The notes: generated by a model not told the origin, from the letters alone. 64,000 bases of DNA from Cyanobacteriota bacterium (GCA_019752015.1 JAIEMQ010000002.1:31869-95868), one strand, 5' to 3'; shown: positions 12,125 through 39,415, counted from the first letter of the stretch. Numbers and translations are program-made.

Positions 12125-13627
12125 TCAGCTGGCGTGCGCCAGCGGCGTGCTGCGCCGGCTGGCCAGGTCGCTGTACGCCTGGCGATACCCTTCGGCGAAT
12201 GTCTGCTCGCTGAAATGCTGCAACGCGCGCGACAACGCGGCCTGGCCGAGGCTGTGCCGCTTGTCGGCCGAATGCAGCAGCGACAGGATGCCGTTGGCGA
12301 GCTCGCGAGGCTGCCGCGGCGGAACGAGCACACCGGTATCGGCAAGCGCTTCGCGGACGCCGCCGACGTCGGTGGCGACGATCGCCGCTCCGGTCAGCAT
12401 CGCCTCGATGATCGAGTAGGGAAACGCCTCGGACACCGAGGCCATTGCCACGACGTCCGCGGCGCGGAGCGCTTCCCATGGCGTCGAAGTCTGCCCCGCG
12501 AACGTTACGGTGTTCTCGAGCCCGCGCTCGGCAACGCTGCGCCGGCAGGTATCGAAATACTCCTGGTCGCTCGGCGCACCGTAGAGGCGGAATTCGACGT
12601 CTGGAATCTGATCGCGGACGAGCGCGGCCGCGGCGATCATGTCGAGCTGACCCTTCAGCGGATAAATCAGTCCGATGGTGCAGACCACCGGGCGGCTCGA
12701 TTTATTGGCCGGCCCCGGGCTGAACGTCTTCGGATCGGCGCCGTTGAAGATTACGCGAATGCGGTGAGGCGGGACACCCCACCATTCTTCCCAGCGCGCG
12801 TTATACGCGCAGACCGGCGCCACCAGATCCGCATAGCGATAGTTGAGCGTCGCGATCAGGTTGACCAGCTTCGACATGAACTGGCGCACGAACGGCGACG
12901 AAATCGAGCGCCGCAACGCGAGGTACTGCTCGCGAATGTAGACGCCGTGTTCGGTCAACAAGTACGGCACGCCGTACTTCAGCTTGGCAACGATGCATGG
13001 CAGCCCGCAGAACGCCGCCGCGCTCGAGTGCGCCACATCGAAGCGGCCGAGCGGCAACGCCAGCGGCTGGAGCAGGTGATACAGCAGGCGCAGCGCGCCG
13101 ACGAGCTCGCCGACCGCCGGCAGCGGCGGCGGCGTGGCGTCGCCGCGCGGACCGGCCGGTGACAACACCCGCAGGACGCTGTCCCAGGCTTGCTCCGATC
13201 GCATGCTGGTGTCGTAGTCGAATTCCTGGCAGTACTCGTGAAGCGAGACCACGGCGGCGGCAACGGCTTCGATCGACGTATTCTTGTCGGAGATGCCCTT
13301 CAGCAGGGTTTCAAAGGCAGGCGCAAAACTCGCGGCGATGACCTCGCCGGTCGTGCGCCATCGGCGATCGAGGTGCGTCGAGAACGCGCTCTCATAGCGG
13401 AATTCCGCCGGCTGTTCGATGCCCCACAGCGGCACCGTCACCAGCTCCTTCACATTCGGATGGAGCGTGTATGACGGCATCAGGTACGGATGCATGGCCA
13501 GCGACAGCAGCGTGAAGTCGACTTCACCCAGCTGCCGGGTCAGCGCATCGCACCACGTGCTCACGCCGCCCTTGTGGTAGGGATAGGTCCCCTCCGTCGT
13601 GAGCAGCACCGACAGCGCGCTCATCAC
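12125..13627 (-). CDS. pelF: PelF-like GT4 glycosyltransferase (DUF3492 N-terminus)
   Basis: TEGTYPY..GGVSTW, LLTEHGVYIRE and GT4 motif SEAFPYSIIEAM...ATDVGG. Confidence 0.88.
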   Translation of the reverse strand: MMSALSVLLTTEGTYPYHKGGVSTWCDALTRQLGEVDFTLLSLAMHPYLMPSYTLHPNVKELVTVPLWGIEQPAEFRYESAFSTHLDRRWRTTGEVIAASFAPAFETLLKGISDKNTSIEAVAAAVVSLHEYCQEFDYDTSMRSEQAWDSVLRVLSPAGPRGDATPPPLPAVGELVGALRLLYHLLQPLALPLGRFDVAHSSAAAFCGLPCIVAKLKYGVPYLLTEHGVYIREQYLALRRSISSPFVRQFMSKLVNLIATLNYRYADLVAPVCAYNARWEEWWGVPPHRIRVIFNGADPKTFSPGPANKSSRPVVCTIGLIYPLKGQLDMIAAAALVRDQIPDVEFRLYGAPSDQEYFDTCRRSVAERGLENTVTFAGQTSTPWEALRAADVVAMASVSEAFPYSIIEAMLTGAAIVATDVGGVREALADTGVLVPPRQPRELANGILSLLHSADKRHSLGQAALSRALQHFSEQTFAEGYRQAYSDLASRRSTPLAHAS

Positions 13628-13628
13628 A

Positions 13629-14984
13629 TCACCGGAAGATGACTTGCGCGCGCTGGCCCGTCAGCAGGTGCCCTGACGCGTTCGCGAATTCCACCTCGAC
13701 GGTGTGCGTCATGTTCGGCGCCGGGATCGGGTTGATCGACGCGATGCGCCCTTCAACCTGTTCGGCAGGCATGGTCGGCAGCGTGATCGTCACGGGCTCA
13801 CCGACTTTGAGGATGTTGACTAGCTTCGGGGAGATCGGGACCTCCACGAGCAGCTCGTTCAGTTTCGCAATCGTGACAATCGGCGCGCCCGAAGTCAGGC
13901 GGCTGCCGACATCAACGGTGACGTCCACGACCACGCCGGCGGTGGAGGCCCGTAATACCGTGTCCGCAATGGCCCGCTCTGCCGCATCGACACGCTGCTG
14001 CGCCTGCAGCGCACGCGTCTGTGCCTGCGCGAGCCGCGCCACATAGTCGGCGCGCATCTGCTGGAAATCGGCGCGGCTGCGCGCAATCTGCTGCTGCGCC
14101 TGATCCTGCTGCGCGCGTTGCAATTCGGCCGAGGCCGTCTGCCATCGCCGCGCATTCTCGAGATCGTTCTGCGCAATTCGGACCGCGGTCATCTGCTCGT
14201 CGAGCTGCTCATCGGAGAGCAGCTTCTGCGCGTGAAGCTTCTGCATGCGCTGCAGTTTCGTCGACTCGTAATCGAAGGCCGCTTGCGCCCGCTCGGGCGA
14301 ATCGCGGAACTGGCGCGCCGGCACCTGCTCCGCCTGGCGCTGCGCGACCGACAACGCGCCGATTGATTGCGCGAAGGCGGTGTTGATGTCGCGAATCGAT
14401 TGGTCGAGATTGGCGATGCTGCGCTGCCAGTGCGCCGCTTCCGTCGAGGCGGCTTGATAGTCGAGGCGCGCGCTGTCGAGCGTCGCGCGCGCAGCCGGAT
14501 CGTCGATCTCAATGAGCGGCTGGCCCGCCGTCACATTGTCGCCGACCGCGACGAGAACTTTCTGAACCGTGCCGCCCGGCGTGCTGGTCAGCGTGGCTCG
14601 CTGGCTCGGCTTGATGGTGCCGGTGAACTCCGCGCCGTTCAGCGATGCCGCTGAATCGGCGGACGCGGTTCGATTCGAGGCGCCCAGGCCCCACGTGCTG
14701 AGCAAGACCACGGCGCCGAGCGCCACTCCCATCCATCGCCGATTGTTGTTCGCGATCGGCGGCGGTTCGCTGACGTGGACGACGACCTTGGCGTCGGCAA
14801 GCCGGCGAAGGCCGTCGAAATCACGCTCGAGCTCGGCGACAAGCCGTCCGGCGAGCTGCGTCTCTTCCACAACGCCGCAAAGCGCGTGTCGAGTTTCGCC
14901 GACATCTCGTCCAGCTTCGGATCTGATTGGTCTGTACGAAGCGTCGTCGGACGCTCGTCGTCGGAGTGGGTGGGAGTCACTCAT
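13629..14984 (-). CDS. HlyD/RND-type membrane fusion (periplasmic adaptor) protein
   Basis: One TM helix; biotinyl-lipoyl halves PGGTVQKVLVAVGDNVTAGQPL and LRASTAGVV around a long coiled coil; C-terminal beta-barrel. Confidence 0.85.
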   Translation of the reverse strand: MSDSHPLRRRASDDASYRPIRSEAGRDVGETRHALCGVVEETQLAGRLVAELERDFDGLRRLADAKVVVHVSEPPPIANNNRRWMGVALGAVVLLSTWGLGASNRTASADSAASLNGAEFTGTIKPSQRATLTSTPGGTVQKVLVAVGDNVTAGQPLIEIDDPAARATLDSARLDYQAASTEAAHWQRSIANLDQSIRDINTAFAQSIGALSVAQRQAEQVPARQFRDSPERAQAAFDYESTKLQRMQKLHAQKLLSDEQLDEQMTAVRIAQNDLENARRWQTASAELQRAQQDQAQQQIARSRADFQQMRADYVARLAQAQTRALQAQQRVDAAERAIADTVLRASTAGVVVDVTVDVGSRLTSGAPIVTIAKLNELLVEVPISPKLVNILKVGEPVTITLPTMPAEQVEGRIASINPIPAPNMTHTVEVEFANASGHLLTGQRAQVIFR

Positions 14985-15262
14985 GATATCCCGTTACAGC
15001 AATAGCGCTGCCAGCGGCAATGCCGCCCTTACGACCCTTAACGCGGGCGTTGTCGCACGTAGTACTTTGAAAGGTCGGTTGACTGGAGAACGAAGTCGCC
15101 TGAGCAGGGTACTTCGCTCCAGAAAATGCGCCGCTTTCGGACGCCTTACTGAAACGTAAATGCGTTGTCGTATTTGAAACTCAGGTTTTTTCGCAAATGC
15201 GGCCTCGTGGCATGGCCGATGCACAACGGCAGCGCAGGTGTTTGTTTAACGAGGGTGCACAC

Positions 15263-17146
15263 ATGAGTTTCCTCTCCCGCTCCTGCCGCCACTTCACAGT
15301 CCTGCTGTTTTTTGGGTGGCTTGTCTATTCCAACGGCCCGGCCGGATCACAGGTCGCGCTCGCGCGCGCAGCGAATGGTCTGCCATGTCCGGTCAACATG
15401 CGGTTGCTCGTGATCAGCGCGAACGGCGGTGAAACCGTTCTGCCTGCAATCCGCGAGACGCTCGACTATCTCGGCACTCCGTACGATCTGCATATCGCGT
15501 CGGGGCCGAGCGTGTTGACGGCCGCGACGCTGGAGAGCGCCCCCTGCCAGGGCCGCTACCAGGGCATCATCCTGACCACGGGTGAGCTTGGCTATTTCAA
15601 CAGCGAAGGCGCCTGGGGCAGCGCGCTGACGGCTGATGAATGGACCGCGCTTCGGCAATACGAAGCCACTTACAAGGTCCGTCAGGCAACTTGGTACACC
15701 TATCCGACGCCGCAGTTCGGCTACAACATCGGCTACGCGGTCGACACCGGTCTGACGCCGATCACCGCCGCCTTCACCGCCGAAGGCGCGAAAGTGTTTT
15801 CCTACCTGAACACCACGACGCCGGTGACGATTGCCAACGCGTATACGTATCTGGCCACGCCGCTCGGCTTTGGCACCACACCGTTGCTGGTGACGGCCGA
15901 CGGCCATGCGCTGGTACTCGTCAACACCGCGACCGACGGCCGCGAGGAATTGTCGATGACCTTTGACGGCAACCAATATCTGCTGCACAGCATTTCGCTG
16001 GGCTATGGGTTGGTGCGCTGGGTAACGCGCGGCGTATTCCTCGGCGAACGCCACGCCTACATGAGCCCGCAAGTAGACGATCTGTTCATCGGCAACGACC
16101 AGTGGGTCGCGGCCACGCCATGCGGAACGCCCGTCGACATGACCGGCTATTCGCAGCGCTCGACCGCGAGCGATCTGAAGGCGGTGCTGGACTGGCAGAC
16201 CACGACGCGCCTGCAGCCGGTCACCCGCAACCTCAAACTGACGATGGCGTTCAATGCGTATGGCGCCACGAACGGCGCCTACACGCCGGACGATCTGACG
16301 CCGTTCCTGACGCAGCCGGCCGTCAAATCACAGTTCCATTGGGTGAGCCACACGTTCACGCATTTGGACCTCGATGCGGCGAATGCGGCGACGACGAGAT
16401 ATGAGCTCAACAACAACATTTCGACGGCCCGGACCCTGGCCTTGCCGGGATTTACTGCGAGCACACTCGTCACTCCGAACATTTCAGGGCTCACCAATGC
16501 GACGTTCCTGCGTGTCGCGCAGAACATCGGGGTCAGGTACCTGGTCAGCGACACATCGCGGGCGGGCTACAGCAACCCCTCGCCCAACACCGGCATCCCC
16601 AACCCGCTGCGTCCGGGGATCTTCATGATCCCGCGCTATCCGAACAACCTGTTCTTCAACGTCGCCGCGCCTGCGGATTGGGCCGCTGAATACAACTGCA
16701 TGTATCGCGGCTTCTGGGGCCGCGACCTGACCTATGCTGAAATCCTCGACATCGAGAGTCAGCGCCTGCTGACGTATCTCCTCAAGGGCGACATGAATCC
16801 GTGGATGTTTCATCAGCCCAATCTCGATGTCTACAACGGCAACAACACACTGCTGACCGATCTCCTCGGCGCGACGATCAACAAGTACCGGGCGATTACC
16901 AACCTGCCGATTCTGAGCCCGCCAATGCAGGACATCGGCGAGCTGATGAAGGCGCGGGCGACTTACAACAATTCGGGCGTCACCGCGACGTGGCAGCCGG
17001 ACGGCTCCGTCAAGATCAGCGTCACGCAGCGCGCCGTCATTCCGATCACTGGCCTGGCGGCGACCGGCGCCGAGCAGTACGGCGACCAGAAGATCGCGCA
17101 CATTACCGTTACGCCGCGCGCACCCGTCACCGTCAAGGTGCCGTAG
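15263..17146 (+). CDS. Secreted Agd3-like polysaccharide deacetylase (CE18-like)
   Basis: Signal-like N-terminus; QVDDLF, WVSHTFTH, PRYPNN and WMFHQPNL resemble the metal-binding motifs of Aspergillus Agd3. Confidence 0.72.
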   Translation: MSFLSRSCRHFTVLLFFGWLVYSNGPAGSQVALARAANGLPCPVNMRLLVISANGGETVLPAIRETLDYLGTPYDLHIASGPSVLTAATLESAPCQGRYQGIILTTGELGYFNSEGAWGSALTADEWTALRQYEATYKVRQATWYTYPTPQFGYNIGYAVDTGLTPITAAFTAEGAKVFSYLNTTTPVTIANAYTYLATPLGFGTTPLLVTADGHALVLVNTATDGREELSMTFDGNQYLLHSISLGYGLVRWVTRGVFLGERHAYMSPQVDDLFIGNDQWVAATPCGTPVDMTGYSQRSTASDLKAVLDWQTTTRLQPVTRNLKLTMAFNAYGATNGAYTPDDLTPFLTQPAVKSQFHWVSHTFTHLDLDAANAATTRYELNNNISTARTLALPGFTASTLVTPNISGLTNATFLRVAQNIGVRYLVSDTSRAGYSNPSPNTGIPNPLRPGIFMIPRYPNNLFFNVAAPADWAAEYNCMYRGFWGRDLTYAEILDIESQRLLTYLLKGDMNPWMFHQPNLDVYNGNNTLLTDLLGATINKYRAITNLPILSPPMQDIGELMKARATYNNSGVTATWQPDGSVKISVTQRAVIPITGLAATGAEQYGDQKIAHITVTPRAPVTVKVP

Positions 17147-18666
17147 TGAGCGCAGCGCTCCAGAGCCTGATCGGCTCGGTCAGGCGCAGCGCGCCTGACC
17201 TCGTCGACGAATGGGAAGCGACGGCGTGGGTGGAATCGTTCGGATGGACCGACGAGCGCATCCGCCACGCCTTCGGTCTCAACGACACTCGTGCGCTCGG
17301 CCGTCACATCTTCGAGCTGCGCGATCGCCGAAAGACGATGCGCCAGGAAGCGCGTGCATTCGTGCGGCGCGCCTGGCGCATGCCGCTGCTCGCCGGCGCC
17401 TACTCGCGAACGCTTGTTTACGCGCTGCCGTGGCTGGTGATGTTTGCGATCGAGGCGGTGTGGCCCGATGCATTCGGGACGCGGCCGGAGATGGCGGGAC
17501 CGATCAGCGTCGCCGTCATGATCAGCCTGATTTCAACCGGCGGCTACGTGCAGGCGATCGCGCGCAAGGGCAGCTTCTATCTGGGCATGAACCAGATCGT
17601 GCTGGCGCGGCACGTCGGACTGCTGCTCTGCCGCGGCGGCGTCATCACCACCATGATTCTCGCACTCTCCGGTTTTGCGGCCGGCGAGTACTTCGACGTG
17701 TTTGGATCGACCGCCGCGCGGCTGGTCGCGACGGCGTACTTCGTGATGCTCAGCATGTTGTGGCTGGCGTGCGCGATGGTCTCGCTCGTTCAGCCGCGCT
17801 GGCGCGTGCCGGTCATCTACCTCGGCGGCGGCGCGGTGTTCCTGGTGGCGCGAGCGGTGTTTCACAGCTCCACGCTGACGGCTCATACGCTGGCGCTGAT
17901 CGGATCGGTGGTGATTGCCGCCGTCGTGACCGTGGAGGCGTTTCGCGGCTCGCGGCAGCGGGACACTCGAACGGAGCGGGTCGTGCTGCCCCGCACGCCG
18001 GTCCTGCTGCACTCGCTGCTGCCGCATTTCGTGTACGGCATCGCGTATTTCACGTTCCTGTTCGCCGATCGACTGTCCGCCGGATCGGCGCTGCCGCTGG
18101 TCTCCGGTTTGCCGTTCGGCATCACGCCCGACTACAAGCGCGGCATCGATCTCGCGTTCCTGGTCTTCCTGCTGGTCGCGGGCGGCGTCGAGTGCTGCAA
18201 CCTCGCCATCATGCGGGCGTGGCGGCGGGACGCCAAGACCGCGGTCGCCGGCGCCGCGGTCTTCGTCGATCGACTGAACCATCGCCGCCGGCTCTCGCTC
18301 GCCATCATCGTCGGCCTGTTCGTCGTGTTGTCCGTCACGGCCGCCGTGATTGCCGGGCGCGTCTCGTTCCTTATTCCCGGATCGAGCATCACGTTTGCCG
18401 CGGGTTGCTTTGGTTACGCATTGTTTGCGATCGGACTGCTCGACGCGCTGCTGCTCTTCAGCGTCAATCGTCCGGGCGAAGTGCTGCGCGCGCTGCTGCC
18501 GGCACTGCTGCTGAACCTGGCCGGAGGATATGCGTTCAGTCATATCGCCGGCGCCAACTACGCCGTCGCCGGCCTGGTCTTCGGCGCGGCGCTGTTTGCG
18601 GTTCGTGCGAGGCAGGGCGTCACGTCCGCGCTGCGCCGGCCCGACTTCGCCTACGCGTGGGCATGA
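17146..18666 (+). CDS. PelG-like multi-TM polysaccharide export protein
   Basis: GTG overlaps the upstream stop; about 12 TM segments; YGIAYFTFLFADRL resembles the PelG motif; genomic context. Confidence 0.55.
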   Translation: MSAALQSLIGSVRRSAPDLVDEWEATAWVESFGWTDERIRHAFGLNDTRALGRHIFELRDRRKTMRQEARAFVRRAWRMPLLAGAYSRTLVYALPWLVMFAIEAVWPDAFGTRPEMAGPISVAVMISLISTGGYVQAIARKGSFYLGMNQIVLARHVGLLLCRGGVITTMILALSGFAAGEYFDVFGSTAARLVATAYFVMLSMLWLACAMVSLVQPRWRVPVIYLGGGAVFLVARAVFHSSTLTAHTLALIGSVVIAAVVTVEAFRGSRQRDTRTERVVLPRTPVLLHSLLPHFVYGIAYFTFLFADRLSAGSALPLVSGLPFGITPDYKRGIDLAFLVFLLVAGGVECCNLAIMRAWRRDAKTAVAGAAVFVDRLNHRRRLSLAIIVGLFVVLSVTAAVIAGRVSFLIPGSSITFAAGCFGYALFAIGLLDALLLFSVNRPGEVLRALLPALLLNLAGGYAFSHIAGANYAVAGLVFGAALFAVRARQGVTSALRRPDFAYAWA

Positions 18667-20180
18667 TGGCGTTCCTCCTCGATCTCGCTCGCGTTGTCTG
18701 GATCGTGACGTTGATCGCGGTGATCGTCTGGGCGCCGGCGGCGTTGCTGACGCGCCGATGGCTGCCGCCGCTGGCCGCGATCCTCGAACAGCTGGTCGTC
18801 ACCCTTGCGATCGTGACCGTGGCGATCTCGCTGCTGAGCCCGGCGCACCTGCTCAATCCGTTCATGCTCGGCGCCGCCTACCTCGCGTGGCCGGCCCGCG
18901 GGCTGGTCTTCATGCATCGCCGGACGCTGACGGCCGACGCGATCGCGCTGTCGCGCCGCCTGACGCTTGCCACTGCCGTCAAGCTCGAACGCGCCGGCAC
19001 CCTCACGACGACATTGCGATCGCTGCCTCCCGCCCCGCAATCAATCGAGGCGCAACGCGCGTCGTTGATGCGTGCCATGACGTCTCCGGGCGCGCTGGTG
19101 GTGATCATGTCGGTGGTCGTGCTCGTCGTTCCCAAACTGGCGGCGACGCTCGCGTTCGTGCGGCTCGCGACACCAGCCGCCTACGCGGAACTGCTGACCG
19201 CGCAGCGCCTGTTCGTGGGCGATCTCGGCTGGCACCGCCCCGACGTGGCCGCTGACATCACGACGGCGCTGTCCGTTGTGAGCTCGATCTCTGCCGCGCA
19301 CCTGGTCCGGCTGCTGACACCGCTCGCACCGGCGATCGTGTTGCTGGTGATGGCCGCGGTATTGAGGTTGATGACGGCGTCGAGAGGACCCGCTGTGGCC
19401 GCAGCCCTTGTTGCGGCGGTCATCGGCGCCGGATCGGTCCCGACGCTTGCCGGCGCGACGGCGGCGCTCTTGCTGATGTTGACGACCTTCTTCCTGCATC
19501 AGGCGATTCGCCGGCGGGAGCGCATTGGCGTCGCGGCTACCGCGGGAATTCTGTTCGCGTTGACGGCGCCGATGCTGACGACGGCCGGGAACGCGCCGTT
19601 CGGCGTGGCGTTGATCGTCGCCGGCGTGGTATGGATCGCCGAGCGGCGATTCCAGTTCGCCCGGCCGCCGGTGAGGACGGCGTCTGCGACCGCGGTCGCG
19701 CTGCTCGCGCTCGCGGTGGTGGTGCCGCGATCGGCATCGGCGAGCTACGTCGAGTACGACGCGGCTGCGCGTCAGGTGCTGCGCATTGCCGGCGAATTCC
19801 CGAAGTTCAAGTGGATGGTCGCCGCGCCGGTCGAAGAATGGGTGTTGTCGTACGGACGCGGCTGGCACCTGAACCTGCATCAGTTCGTGGAAGAGGTCGG
19901 TCCGCGGACCAACGACCCGGGCTTCCGGCTGCCGTATCACGTCGACGAGTTGTTCGTGTTCGTCGAAACGCGGCCGTTCGCGACCTACGCGACGGAACCC
20001 GCCGATGTGCCCTTCAAGACGCTGATCGATCCGGTGTATCGCCATTACCGATCGCCGGCCGGACGCGCGAGCCTGCAATTTGCCGCCTACAAGATTTCCG
20101 AGCAGCTGCTCAGGCAGACGCCGTCGAGCGTGTATTACGAAGACGGGCGCCTGAAGATCTATCGGTTCCAGTTGCGGTGA
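18663..20180 (+). CDS. Multi-TM membrane protein with soluble C-terminal domain (possibly GT-C-like)
   Basis: ATGA-coupled; many TM helices followed by a soluble domain ending YYEDGRLKIYRF. Confidence 0.5.
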   Translation: MMAFLLDLARVVWIVTLIAVIVWAPAALLTRRWLPPLAAILEQLVVTLAIVTVAISLLSPAHLLNPFMLGAAYLAWPARGLVFMHRRTLTADAIALSRRLTLATAVKLERAGTLTTTLRSLPPAPQSIEAQRASLMRAMTSPGALVVIMSVVVLVVPKLAATLAFVRLATPAAYAELLTAQRLFVGDLGWHRPDVAADITTALSVVSSISAAHLVRLLTPLAPAIVLLVMAAVLRLMTASRGPAVAAALVAAVIGAGSVPTLAGATAALLLMLTTFFLHQAIRRRERIGVAATAGILFALTAPMLTTAGNAPFGVALIVAGVVWIAERRFQFARPPVRTASATAVALLALAVVVPRSASASYVEYDAAARQVLRIAGEFPKFKWMVAAPVEEWVLSYGRGWHLNLHQFVEEVGPRTNDPGFRLPYHVDELFVFVETRPFATYATEPADVPFKTLIDPVYRHYRSPAGRASLQFAAYKISEQLLRQTPSSVYYEDGRLKIYRFQLR

Positions 20181-20190
20181 TGCGTTGCAT

Positions 20191-21234
20191 ATGAAACGAG
20201 CGATTGCGATGTTGATGTTGATGTTGAGTGCCACCGCGCTGTGCAATGCCGCGGTCCCGATCGGCGCGTCCGCTCCGGCCGCGCCACTGGCGCCGGCGCG
20301 GCTCGCGATCTACTACGGCTATCCGAGCCTCGTAAACGGGGCATCGGGCGACGTCGCGCGCGCCGCGGCAACTTTTGCCGATTACGACGTCGTGGTCTTC
20401 GGCGACGGCCTCGAATTCGCGGACGTCAATCCGCGGCGCACGCCGGCGGGTGCCGGACCCGACGAGCATCGGCGAACGGCGGCGATCGTCGACAAGCTGC
20501 GGCAGCAATCAGTCGACGTCTACGGCTACATCGATCTGGGTAATTCGCAGAAGCTCCCGCTGCCCGAGTTGCTGCAGCGCATCAAGCTGTGGGCGGCGAT
20601 GAAAGTGTCGGGCATCTTTTTCGACGAAGCCGGCTACGACTACGGCGTGACACGTGAGCGTCAGAACGCCGTGGTCGACGCCACCCACGCCCTCGGGCTG
20701 GGGGCCTTCGTGAACGCCTTCAATCCGGACGACGTGTTCGGGGCGGCGCGGGTCCCGATCAACAGTGCCGGAGGCGGCAATCCAGGCGGTACCGCCAGTC
20801 AACTCGGGGCAAACGACACCTACCTGCTCGAGTCTTTCCAGGTGCGGTTGGGCGAAGCCGAGAATTGGTCGTCGTGGGCCATGCGCACGCGCGCCGCGGT
20901 GGCGCATCGCGCGAATCACGGCTCGAAGATTTTTGCCGTCACCACGACGACCGCGCCGACCGAGCGCAACGCAACGAGCCTGTACCCGTATGCATGGTGG
21001 AGCGCGGCGGTCTGGGGCCTCGACGGCTTCGGGTGGGGCGAGCCTGACTTCAGCGGCGCAACCAGCAAGCTTCCCGCGCGTCACCTGCTGATCAATCCGA
21101 CGGCGCTGGCCGGCACCCAGTTCGTGAGCGACGTCATCGAGACGGCCGACGGCATCGAGCGGCGCACCGACGCGGGTCGCATCGTGTTGTCCCGCGCCGG
21201 GCGCAGCGGCCGGTTCATTCCAGGCCAGCCGTAG
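20191..21234 (+). CDS. Secreted TIM-barrel glycoside hydrolase, spherulin-4/Sph3 (GH135)-like
   Basis: Signal peptide; LAIYYG, VYGYIDLG, GIFFDE and YLLESF motifs. Confidence 0.58.
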   Translation: MKRAIAMLMLMLSATALCNAAVPIGASAPAAPLAPARLAIYYGYPSLVNGASGDVARAAATFADYDVVVFGDGLEFADVNPRRTPAGAGPDEHRRTAAIVDKLRQQSVDVYGYIDLGNSQKLPLPELLQRIKLWAAMKVSGIFFDEAGYDYGVTRERQNAVVDATHALGLGAFVNAFNPDDVFGAARVPINSAGGGNPGGTASQLGANDTYLLESFQVRLGEAENWSSWAMRTRAAVAHRANHGSKIFAVTTTTAPTERNATSLYPYAWWSAAVWGLDGFGWGEPDFSGATSKLPARHLLINPTALAGTQFVSDVIETADGIERRTDAGRIVLSRAGRSGRFIPGQP

Positions 21235-21241
21235 GGCGGAT

Positions 21242-21270
21242 TTGACAGCATCGCGTTGCCGCGCAACAAT
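21242..21270 (+). promoter_or_regulatory. Sigma70-type promoter of the fad operon
   Basis: TTGACA (21242-47), 17-nt spacer, AACAAT (21265-70). Confidence 0.65.
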
Positions 21271-21332: not shown

Positions 21333-21959
21333 ATGCGAAGTTCCTCGGCGGGCAAGCTGTCGTTCGTCAAACATCCTGCAGGGAACGTCGATAAACGCGA
21401 CGCGATCCTTCGCGCCGCCACCAAGGTGTTCGCGCACAGCGGCTTCTTCCAGTCGCAGGTCGCCGACGTCGCGCGCGTCGCGGGGGTCGCGGCCGGCACC
21501 GTCTATCTGTATTTTCAAAGCAAGGACGACCTGCTCGTGTCGATCTTCGAGCGGTCGATGAACGAGGTGCTCGCCGAAGGCCGCGCCGCGATGGCCGAAG
21601 TCCCGGACCCGGCCGCGCGCCTCGCGGAGCTGGCGCACCTGCATCTCGAACGCCTCGGCCGCGACAAGGATCTCGCCGTCGTGTTCCAGGTCGAGCTGCG
21701 CCAGTCGGTGAAGTTCATGGAGCGCTTCTCGGAGTCGTTCCTGCAGGATTACTTCAAGCTGATTCGCCAGGCGATTGCCGACGGACAGCAGAGCGGCGCG
21801 TTCCGCAAGGACATCAGCGCCACCACCGCCACCAAGATTTTTTTCGGCGCCCTCGATGAAATGGCCACCAACTGGGTGTTGAGCCGGCGCAAGTACGACC
21901 TCAATGCGGAGGCCGATGCGGTCGTGGACCTGTTCATCAACGGAGTGAAGCGCCAGTGA
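21333..21959 (+). CDS. fadR: TetR-family fatty acid degradation repressor (FadR/YsiA-like)
   Basis: HTH VADVARVAGVAAGTVYLYFQSKDDL; DLAVVFQVELRQS and FGALDEMATNW match the YsiA C-terminal domain. Confidence 0.85.
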   Translation: MRSSSAGKLSFVKHPAGNVDKRDAILRAATKVFAHSGFFQSQVADVARVAGVAAGTVYLYFQSKDDLLVSIFERSMNEVLAEGRAAMAEVPDPAARLAELAHLHLERLGRDKDLAVVFQVELRQSVKFMERFSESFLQDYFKLIRQAIADGQQSGAFRKDISATTATKIFFGALDEMATNWVLSRRKYDLNAEADAVVDLFINGVKRQ

Positions 21960-28993: not shown

Positions 28994-31900
28994 TTACGGA
29001 TTTATCGTCCCAGTTGTAATCACCCAAACGTCGTACGTGACATTAGAGGCGTTCAAGGCGCTACCGACGGTGATCTTGTCGGTCCCGAGAGCGGTAATTG
29101 AATTCGACACAGCATTACCCGTATCGGTACGCCGTCCGGTCGTGTCCCCATTAACGCGGTACACTTTCGCCACTGCAGTTGTCGGGACTACCAGTGCAAA
29201 CTCAGGCGTCGAACCGCTCAGACTTAATGCTATGTCCCGTGACGAAGTGCCGTCTCCCACATACGAAGTCACCGCCATCAGTCTCGTGGATGAAACACCG
29301 TCGCTCACTCTGCCTGCCCAAAACGCGTGATCGCCGCTACCGTGACCGATTAGAGTTCCAAACTGTACCGTGCCTGCGCCAAGGGCTTGGATGCGGTCAG
29401 CATCTGAAGCCTGCGCGACTCCGAGCTTCGCCGTGAGATCACCGGTGTGACCGGGACCCCGATAGAGACTCGCCTTGGTCGAATCCGCACTGTTGCCAAA
29501 CGCCGCGCCACCGAAAATGAAATCTGGTGTGAAGTTCGAGAGCAAAGCACCACTCTGGGGATCCCTGAGTTTATGAGTGTAGTTGTCTTCTGCCAGCGGC
29601 TTCGACACAGCAAATGGAACCACGTAACGACCGGTTGGATCGAAAAGGGCAATGGCAACGTAGTCCACGCCGCTCACGTTGAACGAGCGCGACGCCCCAT
29701 CCACGACGTGCATCTTGCCTCTCTGGGGCCATATCCTCGAGAAGTTCGTCAGAGATGACGACATCCCCGCGGCACCTTGCCGTGACTCCCACCACCACAT
29801 TGGTTCGACGGCGGTTGAGGCATTCAGCGCCATGACGAGTACCGCGGTCGGGACTAGGTTGTTGCCAAAGTCAATCGTTTGGGCTGTCCCATTACCCGTG
29901 TAAGGCCGCTTGATCACTTGGGTCGTTCTGTCAGTGAACGGTTCGGGCTCCGGAGAGTCGTGTTCGACGATTAGGGCAACAGAAAAGAGCGAATTGGTAG
30001 CATTAACGCCATTAGTGACTCCAACTTCGACCACATCCGTCGTCGACCATCCAGACGTAGCCACTCGATACCAACGTGTGTCATTGCTGGCGAGAGTAAA
30101 GTCAGTCAAAGTGGTGTCCACACCGTTACGTCGGATGAACGCTTTGGTGGCCGCCGAGGCGGCTTGCATGCGCACCCCGACAAGCACGCTACCGATTTGA
30201 CCGCTGATGCCGCGCGACGCCATCGATTCCATACGATAGGAAATCTTCTCGCCTAGGACGCTGCTGCTTACTGAGAGAGGGAACGTGCCGTCTCCCGCAA
30301 TAATCGACCGCGCTCGCCAGTCTGGTCTTCCACCCGTCCACGCTGAGTAGGTCCCCGCATCGGCCGCCTGGAGGAGCGTAGAGCGCCAATTCGTCTCATA
30401 GGTTTCCATTGGATCCCCATGACTCTGCGCGCCTAAGAGCGCGGCCTTCCAGACATTCATCAATAATCCGTTCGTTGCTGCTGGAGATTTCAGTGAAGTG
30501 AACACTAGTGATGTTGTTCCACTCGCGACGTCTAGCCCCTTCGGGGTCGTTTCGCCACTTTGCCAAACACCGCCTGGGATGGCGCCGTACGTCACCACGG
30601 TCGCACCATCAAAGATCACTTGAGCCCAACTCGTCATGTTCTCCCAATCTGGATTCGGACTTGGGTGCACAGACTCTGAGTTATGTTCGAATCGCAATTG
30701 AAGGCTGTGCGGAGTGTTGAGTCCAAGGGCGGAGGACGTCCACAAAACTTGAGGCGTAGTCCGGCCTCCATCGTGCTTCACCACCAATTGACCGCTGGTC
30801 GTGATGTACGCCCTGATCGCGTTGGGGCCGCCAGCGCTCGTCTCGGTGCCTAAAAACTCTGCGTCAGCAATAGTCGGGTATCGCTCCACTTCAAACTCGA
30901 GAAATATGCCGCCTTGTTTCGGTTGATTAGGATTATTTCCAATAAAACTCGGTCCGTTCGTAAAACTGTCGACAGTGCCAGCACTTGCCTTCACGCCGAG
31001 TCGAAGACCCGTCGATGGCATGTCCGGATGAATCCACTTCCGTGCGGCCGCAGTCGCGCCAGTTTGGATGATGGTCGCACTTCCCGAGCCAGTGGGAACC
31101 TCCCAGCTCGTCGCTACCTTATGCGAGGTCGTCGTCACAGGATCTGGCGAGAGCAAGGACAGCGTCAGAGTTATCTCTCCGACGTTACTACCATCGGGGT
31201 CAACAATCACCTTGTAGGTACCTGTGACTGGCAATCTCACTTCAATCAGAGCTTTCATACCGACCCACGTGCCGGCAAGAAATGACCCATCAGGATTGCG
31301 GATATCGATTCGTCCCCAAGTGAAAGTGCCACCTGCGGCTTCCAGACGCGCTCTGTCGCCTGCTTTGCCATAGAACTTCAGTGTGTCGAAGCTATTTGTG
31401 ACTGTGATTTCGGCTGTCTTCGTTTTCGGCGCTTCGCGCCAGTTGCTAAAGAGCTTGCCCGATACACATCCGTCGGGATGGTACACGAGATATTCCCAAC
31501 CAGTTTGGTAGACGGCCGACCCCACATCATCTGTGTTAACCACGTATGGAAGGCCACCCGGATCGCAATCGCCCATGCCATCGATTCCGGAAGTGGCTCC
31601 TCCGACGTTGTTAGCATAAACATTGCCCCCTTCAATTCCGTCGATGACCATATTGGTCACCGTGTTGTAGACCACATTGCCGTAGACGTTGCCCACGTTA
31701 TGCGCTGTCCACTGAGGCTCCGTTTTCCACGGATGAGTGCCTAGAAGAAGGCCTATCGCAAGTTTATCGGGGACGAGCGTATAGATAGTGTTGTCGCGAA
31801 ATTCCGAGTTGGTATGTTCGCCGGGGGTAGCCGGCGGTTCGCTCGGTGAATTCCCGGGATTGAGTCCTGCGAACCCATACTTCCCTGTGTTGACAATAAT

Positions 31901-32842
31901 ATTGCCGGCTACAGTGCACGTATTAGATCCGAATATCGCGATTCCAATATCCGTATTGTCGACGAGTAGATTATTGGTGATGAAGCCGTTGTGGCACCAA
32001 AGCGCCGTTATGCCGTCAGACCATGGTGTCTCACCGTTGTCATGTTCGGTATAAACATCTCGCCCATTGCGAGCGATGTAATTGTTATCGACGTTGAAAT
32101 GCCCAAACAACCCGAGCCCGGAGCCGCAGAGTGCCTCAACGGAATGGTTGTAGGCGAAGATAAGTGGCGTACCGCCGGCAATGTAGTTGGGTCCTTGCAG
32201 GAGCAGATTTCCTGGATGACCATCGGCCCCGTCGTCGGAACAATCATCAATGACATCGGGCACCGTTCCTTTTCGGACACGCCAAGCCAAATTCGTGAGA
32301 TCGCCTGATTCTTGCGGCAAGTAATTCTGGCAGTCGCTCAACGAAGGGTTCGGGTCTGTCGCGTCCGTCTCCCCACATACTTGGTCCACCATTCCGTTAA
32401 ACTCGATGTAACGAATCACTACGTTTGGTGTCGGAATGTGCTCCTCCGTGCGCAGGATTCTGGCGAACAAATGCCGACCGGCGAGAATGCGCGCTCGAGC
32501 GTTCTCCGAGCCCCCGGCCGCCGTTAGTGTAGTGTTCGCCTTGATGTACAACCCCTTCAGATGGTCGTTGGGGTTTTGGTCAGTGGTATTTAGATCCGTA
32601 CCGTCAACGATGTATCCAGGAAAGGCGATTGTGAGGGAAATAGTGCCATTGTTCGCAGTTGCCCAGTCCAAACACGCCTGCAGCGCGGAATCATCTGGTT
32701 GCCAATCGGTCGGATCGCCGCAGGAAAGTGGTTGGGCAAACGCCGATTGCGCGAACATGGAAAGTATGGCGGCCAAGAGAAACGCCCGTGATATCGACAG
32801 ACGAAGTAATACTACTGCCGCATGACGTGTTGTTTGGAACAT
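28994..32842 (-). CDS. Large secreted protein: right-handed beta-helix, PPC-like domain, unknown C-terminal modules
   Basis: 1282-aa ORF; signal peptide ending AFA; Asn-ladder repeats (FITNNLLVDNTDIGIAI); RLPVTGTYKVIVD; lower-GC codon usage. Confidence 0.7.
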   Translation of the reverse strand: MFQTTRHAAVVLLRLSISRAFLLAAILSMFAQSAFAQPLSCGDPTDWQPDDSALQACLDWATANNGTISLTIAFPGYIVDGTDLNTTDQNPNDHLKGLYIKANTTLTAAGGSENARARILAGRHLFARILRTEEHIPTPNVVIRYIEFNGMVDQVCGETDATDPNPSLSDCQNYLPQESGDLTNLAWRVRKGTVPDVIDDCSDDGADGHPGNLLLQGPNYIAGGTPLIFAYNHSVEALCGSGLGLFGHFNVDNNYIARNGRDVYTEHDNGETPWSDGITALWCHNGFITNNLLVDNTDIGIAIFGSNTCTVAGNIIVNTGKYGFAGLNPGNSPSEPPATPGEHTNSEFRDNTIYTLVPDKLAIGLLLGTHPWKTEPQWTAHNVGNVYGNVVYNTVTNMVIDGIEGGNVYANNVGGATSGIDGMGDCDPGGLPYVVNTDDVGSAVYQTGWEYLVYHPDGCVSGKLFSNWREAPKTKTAEITVTNSFDTLKFYGKAGDRARLEAAGGTFTWGRIDIRNPDGSFLAGTWVGMKALIEVRLPVTGTYKVIVDPDGSNVGEITLTLSLLSPDPVTTTSHKVATSWEVPTGSGSATIIQTGATAAARKWIHPDMPSTGLRLGVKASAGTVDSFTNGPSFIGNNPNQPKQGGIFLEFEVERYPTIADAEFLGTETSAGGPNAIRAYITTSGQLVVKHDGGRTTPQVLWTSSALGLNTPHSLQLRFEHNSESVHPSPNPDWENMTSWAQVIFDGATVVTYGAIPGGVWQSGETTPKGLDVASGTTSLVFTSLKSPAATNGLLMNVWKAALLGAQSHGDPMETYETNWRSTLLQAADAGTYSAWTGGRPDWRARSIIAGDGTFPLSVSSSVLGEKISYRMESMASRGISGQIGSVLVGVRMQAASAATKAFIRRNGVDTTLTDFTLASNDTRWYRVATSGWSTTDVVEVGVTNGVNATNSLFSVALIVEHDSPEPEPFTDRTTQVIKRPYTGNGTAQTIDFGNNLVPTAVLVMALNASTAVEPMWWWESRQGAAGMSSSLTNFSRIWPQRGKMHVVDGASRSFNVSGVDYVAIALFDPTGRYVVPFAVSKPLAEDNYTHKLRDPQSGALLSNFTPDFIFGGAAFGNSADSTKASLYRGPGHTGDLTAKLGVAQASDADRIQALGAGTVQFGTLIGHGSGDHAFWAGRVSDGVSSTRLMAVTSYVGDGTSSRDIALSLSGSTPEFALVVPTTAVAKVYRVNGDTTGRRTDTGNAVSNSITALGTDKITVGSALNASNVTYDVWVITTGTINP

Positions 32843-33129
32843 GAGGGGCCTCCTTGCTGAACATCAGCATATCAATAGACGACCTGCCTCTCGAAAACTC
32901 TCAGCCAACGGCCACGACTTGAATTGGACGATCGCCCAAACGTGTTGATGCAGAATCAGGGCGTTATTGCGGCGGCTGCGATCCGCTCAAGGGCCTCGTC
33001 GCTCGCAAAGACTGGATGCGAGTTCTCGTATTGCGCTCATGAATTTAACGACCGCTGCTGAATTCGCATCGGTATGCCGCATCGATCCAGTATCCTGCCG
33101 GAGTGCTGGCGCATACCCGGGAAGGTTCG

Positions 33130-34743
33130 ATGATTCGTGGGTTTTCGGTGGCGGTGATCGGATTCATAGCCGCAACCGTGATTCTCACATATCCACAAGC
33201 CGTCGCTCTCACGACGTCTGTGGGTCCGCACTATGATGCGCTGTTCAGCATCTGGCGGCTTGCGTGGATCGCCCACCAACTTCCGAATCATCCGCTCGAT
33301 TTATTCAACGCCAACATCTTCTACCCTGAGCAGCTCACACTCGCCTACTCTGACGCGCTGCTTTTGCAGGGCTTGATAGCCGCTCCGTTTCTGTGGATCG
33401 GGTTCAGCGCGGTGCTCGTCCATAACGTCATGCTGCTCGCGACGTTTGTGTTAAGCGGCGCGGCGATGTTTTGGCTGGTGCGTGAACTCACCAAATCTGA
33501 ATCGGCGGGTTTCGTCGCCGGGATGATTTTCGCGTTTCAACCGTATCGATTCGGACACTACACGCAACTTGAGCTCCTAAGCGGGTGGTGGATTCCAATC
33601 GCGTTCTGGTTATTCGAGCGCGCGATTGTGAGCGCATCGGTCGCGCGCTGGTCGTGGCTTGGCGCAATTATTGCGCTGCAAACACTGTCGAGCATTTACT
33701 ACGGAGTCTTCCTGGTGACCGCTCTTGGCATCCTGACCGTCGTGCGGCTGCCGCGAAGCGGGATCATGCCGTCAGCGGCAATGGCGAAGGCGGTGCTCAG
33801 CGGGGTATTAGTCGCGGCCGTGATGGTGATTCCGTACATGATTCCCTACCTGAGCACGCGGCACATTGTCGGCGAGCGCTCAATCGGGGAGGTCACCAAC
33901 TGGAGCCCTCATCTCAGCACCTATCTCGTGACGACGCGTGAGCACTGGCTTTACGGCGCCCGGCTCGGCGACCTCGCGCATCCCGAAGGAATTTTGTTTC
34001 CTGGTTTGACAGCAGTGACGCTCGCGTTGATGGGAGCGGTGCCACCAAGCAATCGGCTGCGAATCGCTTACGTTGTCCTCTTATTGCTCGCGTTCGACTT
34101 GTCCCTCGGTTTCAACGGACTCACATACCCACTCTTATATGAGGTGGCATTACCGTACCGAGGCCTGCGCGCTCCCGGCCGATTGTTCGTTATCGTTTCG
34201 GCGGCACTCAGCGTCTTGGCGGGCTGGGGTTTCGTTCGGATCGCGGAGTCCTGCCGCAGTCGCTTGCAACGCGTGTTAGTCGCGGCGGTTGCAGTGACGC
34301 TAATTGCGGCCGAAAGCGCCACGATGCCGATGAGTCTCGTACCGGTGCCCACTCCCGACCCGGTCTATCGCTGGTTGGCGCAGCAACCGCCGAGCGTTGT
34401 ATTGGAATGGCCCTTCCCCAACACGAGCCGCCTAGGATTCACATTTGATCCGAACTACATGTATTTCTCAACGGGCCATTGGCACCGGCTGGTCAATGGC
34501 TACAGCGGGTTCCATCCGCCCTCGTACATCAAACTGCTGGATGGACTGACGCCGTTTCCGACCTCGACAGGCATAGAAGCCCTGCGCAAGCTTGGCGTTG
34601 AGTACCTGATCCTCCATAACGTGGAACCCGGTGAGTGGAACCGAGTCAACCAGGCCCTCCAACAGAGTCCCTCCGTGCGTCTCGTGCTGACTGATTCCGC
34701 GATGGAAGCCAACGTCGCGGTTTATCAAATCGTCGGCCGTTAA
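33130..34743 (+). CDS. Multi-TM GT-C/YfhO-like membrane protein
   Basis: LFNANIFYPEQLTLAYSD, FAFQPYRF, GLRAPGR, HWHRLVNGYSG; about 12 TM segments. Confidence 0.65.
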   Translation: MIRGFSVAVIGFIAATVILTYPQAVALTTSVGPHYDALFSIWRLAWIAHQLPNHPLDLFNANIFYPEQLTLAYSDALLLQGLIAAPFLWIGFSAVLVHNVMLLATFVLSGAAMFWLVRELTKSESAGFVAGMIFAFQPYRFGHYTQLELLSGWWIPIAFWLFERAIVSASVARWSWLGAIIALQTLSSIYYGVFLVTALGILTVVRLPRSGIMPSAAMAKAVLSGVLVAAVMVIPYMIPYLSTRHIVGERSIGEVTNWSPHLSTYLVTTREHWLYGARLGDLAHPEGILFPGLTAVTLALMGAVPPSNRLRIAYVVLLLLAFDLSLGFNGLTYPLLYEVALPYRGLRAPGRLFVIVSAALSVLAGWGFVRIAESCRSRLQRVLVAAVAVTLIAAESATMPMSLVPVPTPDPVYRWLAQQPPSVVLEWPFPNTSRLGFTFDPNYMYFSTGHWHRLVNGYSGFHPPSYIKLLDGLTPFPTSTGIEALRKLGVEYLILHNVEPGEWNRVNQALQQSPSVRLVLTDSAMEANVAVYQIVGR

Positions 34744-37909: not shown

Positions 37910-39405
37910 TGGTAGACTCCAATCCGCTTGGCCTTCTCATCGAAGATGTAGAGGCGCCCCGCCCCGTCGACGCCGATGGCGCGCGCGCGAGTAAACGCGC
38001 CGGGCGCCTTCTCCTCGAGCGTAAACGACGTGATCAACCGGTTGCGCGGACCGAACACGAACACCGATTCACGGCCGCGATCCAGGACGTAGAGATAGCC
38101 AAGCCGATCGAACGCGAGGTCGACCGGCTCATCGAGCTGGTAGTTCGCGCCCTTGGTCATGATCTTCGAGAGCGGCTTGCCGTCGCGATCGAGGATCGAG
38201 ATCGCCTTCGCATCCTTGTCGATCAACGCGATGTCGTCGAGGACGTTGATCGCCATGCGCTCGGTATTGATCGCCGCGGTGAACGGCCCGAGGTACTGCC
38301 CGCGCGCGTCGTAGCGGACGACGGTCTTGTCCTTCTTGTTGACGACCAGTCGATGGCCCGTCGCCATCATCACCGCGGACGGAACCTCCTCGACCGGCCG
38401 CGGCGGTTTGTTCGGTTCCGTCGGCGGCAGCATGATCGGCATCGAGGCCGCCCGCTCGGTGTGCAGCGCGCCGTCGCGCGCGAAGACGACGCGATTGAGC
38501 TCGTCGACGAAAAACGTCGACGGATCCTGGGCGGTGACGGTGCTGGCCGGCGCGCCTTTCAGGTCGAACACCGCGATGCCCTTGTTGTAGCCGAGCAGGA
38601 TGCGGTGCAGCGGATCGATCTTCACGCCGACCACGTCATCGAAGTTCGATTTCTCGGGCCCGATATAACGGCCGCTGAACGCGAACGCCGACGCTTTCGG
38701 CGCGCGCACGTGCAGCCGGTAGAGAATAGAATTGATGTTGAGCGCGGTCTCGGATTCGAGCGACGCCGGCATCATCTGCCGCACGCGCTGCACTTCGGGC
38801 AGCGCCGCCGTGGCGCGATCGACTTGCGCGAGGCAATAGCCCGCCGCGAGATTCGCGCGCGCCGCCCATGGCGAGTTCGGATACGACGCGGTCACACGGC
38901 GATAGCGCGCCAGCGCCTCCTCGTTCCGCCGCACCAGCCGCAGCGCTTCGCCCGCATAGAACCCCGCGGCCGGAACGGCATCGTTGCCGGGGAACAGCCG
39001 CTCGACACGCTCGAAGCTCGCCACCGCCGAATCAACGTCGCCCGGCGCGCGGCCCTTGGCCATCGAGACGCGGCCGCCGACGACGTAGGCCATCGGCGCC
39101 GAGTCGGTCTCGGGATAGGTCTTCAACAACTGATCGACGGCGGATTGCGCCGAGCCGAGATCCTTCGCGATGTCGATCTGATACAGCACCATCTGCAACA
39201 GCGCGTTGTCGGCAACCTGGCTCCGCGGGAAGGAATCGATGATCGCCTGGAAGTCCTTCATCGCTTCGGCGTAACGCTGGCCCTTGAAAAACGCCAGGCC
39301 GCTCTCGTACTGGCGGCGCGGCAAATCCTCGTTCGACTGCGTCGATACTGCGGCCGTCGCGAAAATGATGGCCAGTGCAGCGACGATGGGGAGTGTCGGC
39401 TTCAT
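37906..39405 (-). CDS. Secreted TPR (BamD/CpoB-like) + NHL beta-propeller protein
   Basis: FQAIIDSFPRSQVADNALL TPR; EPVDLAFDRLGYLYVLD NHL repeats. Confidence 0.8.
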   Translation of the reverse strand: MKPTLPIVAALAIIFATAAVSTQSNEDLPRRQYESGLAFFKGQRYAEAMKDFQAIIDSFPRSQVADNALLQMVLYQIDIAKDLGSAQSAVDQLLKTYPETDSAPMAYVVGGRVSMAKGRAPGDVDSAVASFERVERLFPGNDAVPAAGFYAGEALRLVRRNEEALARYRRVTASYPNSPWAARANLAAGYCLAQVDRATAALPEVQRVRQMMPASLESETALNINSILYRLHVRAPKASAFAFSGRYIGPEKSNFDDVVGVKIDPLHRILLGYNKGIAVFDLKGAPASTVTAQDPSTFFVDELNRVVFARDGALHTERAASMPIMLPPTEPNKPPRPVEEVPSAVMMATGHRLVVNKKDKTVVRYDARGQYLGPFTAAINTERMAINVLDDIALIDKDAKAISILDRDGKPLSKIMTKGANYQLDEPVDLAFDRLGYLYVLDRGRESVFVFGPRNRLITSFTLEEKAPGAFTRARAIGVDGAGRLYIFDEKAKRIGVYQ

Positions 39406-39415
39406 GGGGGTGGTT

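Follow-up and report, generated by a model that had tools for sequence, protein, structure and literature searches.

A six-gene block in a Cyanobacteriota bacterium as a probable horizontally acquired cassette for a Pel/galactosaminogalactan-type exopolysaccharide

In this study, we analysed a stretch of 64,000 nucleotides from a Cyanobacteriota bacterium (GCA_019752015.1, JAIEMQ010000002.1:31869-95868; hereafter the window, in whose coordinates positions are given) and within it a block of six genes at 12125-21234. The block probably arrived by horizontal transfer and, as a self-contained cassette, would encode a synthase-dependent exopolysaccharide pathway of the type of Pel and galactosaminogalactan (GAG). 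These two are major adhesive biofilm polymers with poorly understood synthase cores, and polymers of their type are chains of alpha-1,4-linked N-acetylgalactosamine (GalNAc) that become cationic and adhesive through partial de-N-acetylation. Open reading frame (ORF) calling and family searches found six intact, full-length genes in two divergent operons, the layout that an initial annotation of the sequence had described. On the minus strand are a periplasmic adaptor of the HlyD/membrane-fusion type (13629-14984, 451 residues) and a PelF-type cytoplasmic glycosyltransferase (GT) with DUF3492 and GT4 regions (12125-13627, 500 residues). The plus-strand operon encodes a secreted Agd3-type polysaccharide de-N-acetylase with CBM87 and carbohydrate esterase 18 (CE18) domains (15263-17146, 627 residues), membrane protein A, a putative divergent PelG-type exporter of the MOP superfamily (17143-18666, 507 residues), the orphan membrane protein B (18663-20180, 505 residues), and a secreted (beta/alpha)8-barrel protein resembling glycoside hydrolases (GHs) and lying at the margin of Spherulin4/GH135 (20191-21234, 347 residues). 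Membership of these families suggests a GalNAc/galactosamine (GalN) chemistry for the polymer, and the cassette is real, coherent and probably functional.

The synthase pair and the secreted enzymes

The assignment of the GT to the PelF type, made initially from its motifs, was upheld by profile searches. The protein matched Pfam DUF3492 (E 6.9e-39) and Glycos_transf_1 (E 8.3e-31) and scored 146.2 bits against the NCBIfam PelF equivalog NF038011 (cut-off 100), with model positions 2-489 of 489 covered; among the 19 matches to PelF in the genome it is the only one above the cut-off. The motif EGTYPY..GGVSTW is present at its N-terminus, and its sequence also has an E-x7-E string, which we take to be the GT4 signature.

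Natural fusions are the strongest evidence of linkage in the block, and because of them we regard the GT and protein A as partners. Among the best 150 relatives of protein A, drawn from a library of 1.8 billion proteins, 10 are 1,060-1,220 residues long and have the A-like region at the C-terminus. A DUF3492-GT4 region stands in front of the A-like region in all eight of the long relatives that were scanned (P0262, P0265, P0268, P0272, P0279, P0285, P0320 and P0332), and the same fusion of PelF-type and PelG-like parts is encoded in two of the related loci considered below, L030 (11637-14966) and L063 (5202-8735). In these fusions bacteria have an equivalent of the transmembrane-GT layout that has been proposed for the fungal enzyme Gtb3.

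Protein A itself gave a sub-threshold match to Pfam PelG (PF16933) in a whole-genome search (window 17491-18048, 21.3 bits versus a cut-off of 29). In its family, 14 of 52 members match PelG, with a best E of 2.6e-10, and no other family recurs. The AlphaFold2 (AF2) model of protein A (pLDDT 92.0) had only MATE, Wzx (WzxE) or MurJ proteins as its 50 listed fold matches, and the protein also has a conserved N-terminal cytoplasmic domain of ~60 residues. Because of the sub-threshold PelG matches of protein A and its relatives, together with fold matches confined to MOP proteins, protein A is, as judged from its model, a divergent PelG with a 12-helix MOP fold. The initial annotation had correctly listed two multi-spanning membrane proteins and had missed the PelG character of this one. 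No PelG was found in the 151 genomes sampled from the phylum of the host.

The deacetylase exceeded the cut-off of 27.6 bits for both Pfam Agd3_CE (PF25115, 105.2 bits) and CBM87_Agd3 (PF25116, 53.8 bits, residues 66-220), and matched the Agd3 structure 6nwz in PDB with an E of 4.9e-23. An alternative start at 15197 gives a protein of 649 residues, in the numbering of which D294, D295, H385, H389, R480, M537 and H539 align with Agd3 D377, D378, H510, H514, R613, M666 and H668; all seven are invariant in 22 homologues. In Agd3, D377 is the base, D378, H510 and H514 form the metal triad, and H668 is the acid, these residues together with R613 and M666 lying in catalytic motifs CM1-CM4 (PMC7229062). 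Since both family cut-offs are passed and the catalytic residues are identical, the enzyme is by its sequence of the CE18 type, with a CBM87 domain; the CE4 match that would have spoken against the initial Agd3/CE18-like call was not seen, and the quoted motifs DD, HTFTH and FHQ are present. The residues for metal-dependent de-N-acetylation by the Asp/His mechanism of Agd3 are in place, and we predict that activity.

The last gene, for which an alternative TTG start exists at 20185, was initially described as a secreted GIFFDE hydrolase, and the motif is present. In its AF2 model (pLDDT 92.6) a (beta/alpha)8 barrel, a GH-type fold, is followed by a small beta domain at the C-terminus, so the feared lack of any GH similarity did not materialise. 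Its closer designation as Sph3-like fared less well. The protein scored 25.0 bits against Spherulin4 (PF12138; cut-off 30.2; profile positions 34-110 of 239), Sph3 (5C5G) was not among the 50 listed Foldseek matches, and searches of PDB sequences with the single sequence and with a six-sequence profile gave no relevant match, Sph3 included. In the Foldseek list GH168 fucanases came first, at a template-modelling (TM) score of ~0.5, and the PelA hydrolase domain (5tcb) ranked fifth (TM 0.42/0.55). Of 35 hydrolase relatives, 19 match Spherulin4 at E<=0.01 (best E 3.7e-7), with no matches to any other family. Residues D145, E146 and E214 are invariant and placed where strands 4 and 6 end, and the 69-residue spacing from D145/E146 to E214 equals that of TmGH191 (PMC12054363). 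Endo-alpha-1,4-galactosaminidases of the group GH114/135/166/191 have such a barrel with an Asp nucleophile and a Glu acid/base on its C-terminal face, roles for which these residues are candidates. The hydrolase is a borderline case, a galactosaminidase-like outlier and not a member of GH135.

Recurrence of the gene set and its insertion

The alignment of Agd3 homologues led to 135 relatives in species-representative genomes, of which 77 loci were kept and searched by tblastn and hidden Markov models (HMMs). In 19 of the 77 loci Agd3 is found together with a high-scoring PelF type, and in 18 with protein A (>=100 bits). Protein B occurs in seven, the cassette-type adaptor in the same seven, and the hydrolase in five of those seven. 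All six genes are together in five loci (L007, L009, L015, L018 and L032), whose hosts are two metagenome-assembled genomes (MAGs) of Terriglobales, a group-6 acidobacterial MAG, a Vicinamibacterales MAG and an alphaproteobacterial MAG; the possibility that the genes do not co-occur in relatives, which had been named as one that would refute the initial reading, was thus not borne out. Besides the window's own, three arrangements were seen, and the adaptor-PelF and A-B pairs are adjacent in every one. Because the six families recur together in different orders, and because the coordinates of the set match the block missing in congeners, their co-occurrence is more than chance. In addition, four sister loci (L015, L052, L063 and L065) have a gene for an NAD-dependent epimerase adjoining the Agd3 gene and three (L039, L052 and L070) a GH114 gene, so that the wider family spans the whole fungal GAG gene set.

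Two further features of the Agd3 genes were seen among these loci. Both Terriglobales cassettes have a stand-alone protein of ~285 residues, consisting of CBM87 only, directly upstream of the deacetylase (L007:7312-8169 and L015:9797-10648). A Myxococcota MAG has six full-length Agd3-type sequences within one 17-kb locus (L045); all six fall into one clade (support 100), a sign that the deacetylase expanded locally in tandem.

The block is missing at the corresponding site of related genomes. Eight congeners were examined, chosen for their long contigs from 25 with an orthologous FadB-like gene, and all eight have the same flanking genes and no cassette. Their order is MurJ, MFS, rhomboid, cupin and E1 dehydrogenase, in most of them NHL, GDSL and two ABC-2 genes, and then TetR and FadB. 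The gap from the ABC permease to TetR is 67-726 bp in the six of the eight congeners that have the permease, versus 9.2 kb in the window, and nucleotide similarity to the congeners ends at 12123/12124 and returns at ~21359-21390. Since the congeners keep the flanks without the cassette, we regard the 9.2 kb with the six genes as inserted, unique retention being less likely. The deacetylase was found in one of 41 genomes (the window's own, 24 congeners and 16 from other families of the order), that one being the window's own. At the edges of the insertion we found no convincing boundary repeats, att-like sites or inverted repeats, and among the annotated flank genes no integrase, transposase or other recombinase. 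The GC content of the block is like that of its surroundings, without compositional anomaly, and GC at third codon positions (GC3) in the cassette genes (0.77-0.84) matches that of host genes.

In the Agd3 tree, metagenome sequences are grouped with that of the window (support 100), and L018 and L032 join them more loosely. Phyla are thoroughly mixed in this tree and the seven loci with adaptor and protein B do not form one clade, which suggests that the cassettes have been transferred often. Agd3 homologues are numerous in soil metagenomes (593 at E<=1e-5), and close versions, with Agd3 62-78% identical, are on many metagenome contigs that, to judge by their identical lengths, also encode protein B and the hydrolase. 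Four DNA runs of a single study of a drinking-water metagenome (X1-X4) contained 40-85% of the sampled cassette words and may include the source sample; the shares in other runs were smaller.

The genes within each operon are closely packed. The stop codon of the adaptor gene is 1 nt from the start of the GT gene, the start of the protein A gene overlaps the deacetylase stop, and the genes for proteins A and B overlap by ATGA. These overlapping or abutting starts and stops throughout fit translational coupling. A mechanical list of ORFs had contained a single ORF of 989 residues at 17211-20180; we rejected it as one gene because its 5' half, rich in Arg, is an artefact of reading in the wrong frame, beneath which lie the true genes for A (17143-18666) and B (18663-20180). 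The divergent intergenic region (14985-15262) presumably holds the promoters, judging by its position; a scan for the sigma-70 consensus found no site in it, and promoter and terminator scans of the block gave counts at chance level. The sole sigma-70-like site of the scanned stretch (TTGACA, 17 nt, AACAAT) is at 21242-21270, just upstream of the flanking TetR gene and inside the ~120 bp without congener similarity at the right edge of the insertion.

Elsewhere in the window, the stretch at 28994-34743 has a lower GC content (0.55-0.60 versus ~0.64). It contains a minus-strand ORF of 1282 residues with only a weak Pfam match to a right-handed beta-helix and, adjoining it, an ORF of 546 residues (33103-34743) with no Pfam match; both ORFs fall outside the GC3 gene filter and may be foreign DNA. 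The minus-strand genes at 35723-41173 encode a PEGA/PDZ/TPR protein, a TPR/YfiO-like protein and a Ser/Thr protein kinase and are unrelated to the cassette.

Export across the envelope and alternative explanations

The adaptor matched Pfam HlyD_D23 (E 4.1e-20) and HlyD_3 (E 1.5e-16), and its best NCBIfam models were RND_mfp (TIGR01730; 124.3 bits, cut-off 94.9), type_I_hlyD (88 bits) and EmrA. It has a long coiled-coil hairpin of the kind typical of TolC-docking adaptors, and a homologous adaptor gene is directly upstream of PelF in seven of the 77 related loci. An Alg44-like PilZ N-terminus was considered for the adaptor and rejected, there being no Pfam match and no N-terminal conservation.

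Protein B has no Pfam or NCBIfam match, and in 24 relatives no Pfam family was matched at an E under 0.07. Only 22 homologues were found in the word index, all unnamed, and comparison with protein A by hhalign gave a probability of 0.4%, so the two are unrelated. From hydropathy and the positive-inside rule, ~10 transmembrane helices are predicted, with a cytoplasmic loop at residues 84-137, followed by a well-conserved C-terminal domain of ~145 residues that hydropathy and charge place probably in the periplasm. In the seven of 77 loci that encode protein B, its gene invariably follows that of protein A with none in between, and the adaptor gene is present each time; protein B occurs in four of 401 genomes of the host's phylum. 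Look-alikes suggested by a language model (DUF6541, DUF6077, DUF1616 and AftA_C, with 112-188 of 256 features in common) serve as leads only. A predicted complex of protein B with residues 80-451 of the adaptor scored 0.00 against a mark of 0.32, which is evidence neither way.

The initial annotation had recognised no PelB, PelC, PelD, PelE or epimerase in the window. We likewise found no epimerase or PelD, and no GH114, in the cassette or flanks; PelA, PelB, PelC and PelE were not recognised in the cassette, for which searches with models specific to these four were not made. The PelD model (PF16963) had no match in the genome and was also silent in all 14 control genomes, so that its silence is uninformative; GH114 (PF03537) had no match in the genome, with control matches in three genomes. 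Two GalE genes are located elsewhere in the genome. Pfam annotation of 12 kb upstream and 7.5 kb downstream revealed no TPR, porin or lipoprotein gene. The genome has 26 matches to the OEP domain, corresponding to ~13 TolC-type genes, none of them on the window's contig, and as far as the searches covered there is no outer-membrane factor in any of the seven loci with adaptor and protein B. The block contains no dedicated regulator (the TetR gene beside it is part of the conserved flank) and no genes for sugar uptake or catabolism.

From these components a pathway can be proposed. As its family membership suggests, the PelF-type GT4 would polymerise a UDP-HexNAc in the cytoplasm, most likely UDP-GalNAc provided through a GalE-type epimerase encoded elsewhere. 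Protein A would dock the GT and pass the chain across the inner membrane, and the Agd3-type CE18 enzyme, whose translation is coupled to that of A, would strip N-acetyl groups from it outside the cytoplasm. The TIM-barrel hydrolase would trim or release the chain, as Sph3 and PelA-H do. The adaptor, co-translated with the GT, and protein B may then stand in for PelB/C/D/E, the hairpin recruiting a TolC-type channel for passage through the outer membrane. This adaptor/TolC-type exit, with protein B as an accessory partner, is proposed by analogy; it is the least certain step, and we put it forward tentatively.

Several observations weigh against this reading of the block. Identity to Agd3 is low, so substrate specificity is not assured, and protein A of the window is under the PelG cut-off and had no match by hmmscan. 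The hydrolase is likewise below its Spherulin4 cut-off, with best fold matches to GH168 fucanases at a TM of only ~0.5. A clustered, Uge3-like 4-epimerase is not in the cassette, GalE being above cut-off only on contigs 8 and 49, and no receptor for cyclic di-GMP (c-di-GMP) was found, with a PelD model that had no match in any control genome. Adaptor and protein B were seen paired in seven loci, of which six are from Acidobacteriota and so not independent, and the meeting of the adaptor with a TolC-type channel is a prediction. To treat the cassette type as one clade of the Agd3 tree would require at least three changes forced by well-supported branches, and was rejected. Lastly, among public runs no RNA run is listed for the 9.1-kb block.

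Some of these observations would also suit other explanations. The same machinery may produce a different polymer, another hexosamine polymer or a heteropolymer (GlcNAc-based or mixed), to which the CE18 enzyme and the GH would be tuned. The distant Agd3 match, confined to short motif blocks, would allow this, as would the 20-28% BLASTP identity of bacterial Agd3 homologues (Bamford et al. 2020, PMC7229062), a hydrolase that is above threshold for no characterised galactosaminidase family and is closest in fold to fucanases, and a cassette with no UDP-GlcNAc 4-epimerase. We nevertheless consider a different polymer unlikely, as the PelF equivalog, the CE18 domain with CBM87 and the Spherulin4/PelA-H-like barrel are three independent components that all point to GalNAc systems, and the GH114 galactosaminidase genes and epimerases of sister loci point the same way. 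Less probable again is that the cassette is a recently acquired passenger, silent or non-functional in its host. An insertion missing from all eight congeners and not found in 40 relatives, with no regulator of its own beside a TetR gene of the conserved flank, is what such a passenger would look like, but the six reading frames are intact and full-length relative to their relatives, the catalytic residues are kept, GC3 is host-like and close versions occur on many metagenome contigs. It is very improbable that the locus scavenges or remodels foreign, for example fungal, GAG instead of synthesising a polymer. A secreted deacetylase and hydrolase of fungal-GAG-type families would serve that purpose, whereas a cytoplasmic polymerising GT coupled to a MOP exporter, with which it forms a single chain elsewhere, would not, nor would a block without genes for sugar uptake or catabolism.

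The explanation that bears on the export step itself is that export does not run through the adaptor and protein B, which would act as inner-membrane scaffolds or regulators, either like the co-polymerase Alg44 or as a stand-in for PelD/PelE, the polymer remaining cell-bound or leaving by another exit. Alg44 has a periplasmic domain like MexA and HlyD and is a c-di-GMP-sensing synthase partner (PMC8892547), no outer-membrane factor was seen in the seven loci within the cover of the searches, and protein B has no transporter family signature. Set against this are the lack in the adaptor of a PilZ match and of a conserved N-terminal domain, its long hairpin of the TolC-docking type, its best models (RND_mfp, type_I_hlyD and EmrA) and the experimental precedent for export of a synthase product by adaptor and TolC (PMC13438883). 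We give a scaffold or regulatory role nearly the same weight as export through the adaptor, which we keep as the working proposal for this step.

Relation to known polymer systems and significance

Homologues of Agd3 have been listed in uncharacterised operons of 45 bacterial species (Bamford et al. 2020, Nat Commun 11:2450, PMC7229062). According to that report, these operons always encode a cytoplasmic GT and a multi-spanning membrane protein, often GH114 and sometimes Spherulin-4 proteins, and those of Gram-negative bacteria, such as the Proteobacteria Burkholderia, Moritella and Stigmatella, include homologues of Pel outer-membrane components. The cassette likewise combines an Agd3 homologue with a cytoplasmic GT and a multi-spanning membrane protein. 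In contrast to the operons as described in the available text of that report, it has no GH114, and a HlyD-type adaptor and an orphan membrane protein take the place of PelB/C-like genes, none of which was found in the block or flanks. Therefore the architecture, initially taken to be unknown, is of a kind already catalogued: the cassette is a variant of the bacterial Agd3 operons listed in 2020 by computation, to which it adds the adaptor and the orphan protein B. In the literature we did not find the adaptor-plus-B variant, although the figures or supplements of PMC7229062 could contain such loci. We likewise found there no account of the multi-spanning partner as PelG-like with natural PelF fusions or of the cassette as a discrete insertion, and PelF and HlyD appeared together only in unrelated contexts.

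The cassette shares with the Pel systems of Pseudomonas aeruginosa (pelABCDEFG) and Bacillus cereus (pelDEA_DA FG) a core of PelF-type GT and PelG-type MOP protein and, as predicted, de-N-acetylation by a three-domain esterase and cutting of the polymer by a TIM-barrel hydrolase. Its deacetylase gene adjoins the gene for the PelG-like protein, as in the PelA_DA-PelG model for B. cereus, in which PelA_DA de-N-acetylates the polymer at the mouth of PelG (PMC13254593). The differences are that the deacetylase is CE18 and not of the CE21 or PelA_DA type, that protein A is below the PelG cut-off, that no PelD was found, and that no PelE, PelA, PelB or PelC was found in the cassette. With the GAG cluster of Aspergillus fumigatus (uge3, gtb3, agd3, ega3 and sph3) the cassette has in common an Agd3-type enzyme of CE18 and CBM87 and a Spherulin4-related hydrolase, as well as a synthase of GT4 and membrane domain, split in the cassette and fused in other bacteria, a make-up that is assumed for Gtb3 (PMC9860509). 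It differs from that cluster in having no Ega3/GH114 or epimerase and in that its diderm host needs an outer-membrane step.

For this step, the closest parallels are synthases that work with an adaptor and TolC. The mixed-linkage beta-glucan of Sinorhizobium is made by the BgsA-BgsB-TolC system, a synthase with an adaptor that needs TolC (PMC13438883), and HlyD-like and TolC-like partners have been proposed for the cyanobacterial cellulose synthase (PMC8892547). As far as these reports describe them, such systems resemble the cassette in having an adaptor gene co-transcribed with that of the polymerising enzyme and no outer-membrane gene in the operon, and differ from it in that their synthase is a GT2 with its own membrane channel, whereas the cassette has a soluble GT4, a separate MOP protein and an orphan membrane protein.

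Current knowledge of these synthases shows where the cassette may be of use. Gtb3 is a transmembrane GT of ~300 kDa whose size has hampered its study (PMC9860509), and the handover of Pel from PelG to the modifying enzymes is described in models only (PMC13254593). With its six genes, the cassette is a minimal and mobile form of such a system in which the synthase is split into parts of 500 and 507 residues, and its relatives include fusions of ~1,100 residues; such proteins would be tractable for structural and biochemical study. A more far-reaching and speculative proposal is that the adaptor and protein B form an undescribed trans-envelope module that links a PelF/PelG-type synthase to a TolC-type channel and replaces PelB/C/D/E. 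The six genes would then amount to a transferable cassette that travels among bacteria of soil and water and makes a cationic GalNAc polymer independently of c-di-GMP, with protein B founding a new family of polysaccharide-export accessory proteins. Our findings suggest that diderm bacteria can export a polymer of this type without PelBC by means of an efflux-type adaptor. If that is true, it would lengthen the list of synthase-dependent secretion routes and improve the annotation of Agd3-bearing loci in soil metagenomes.

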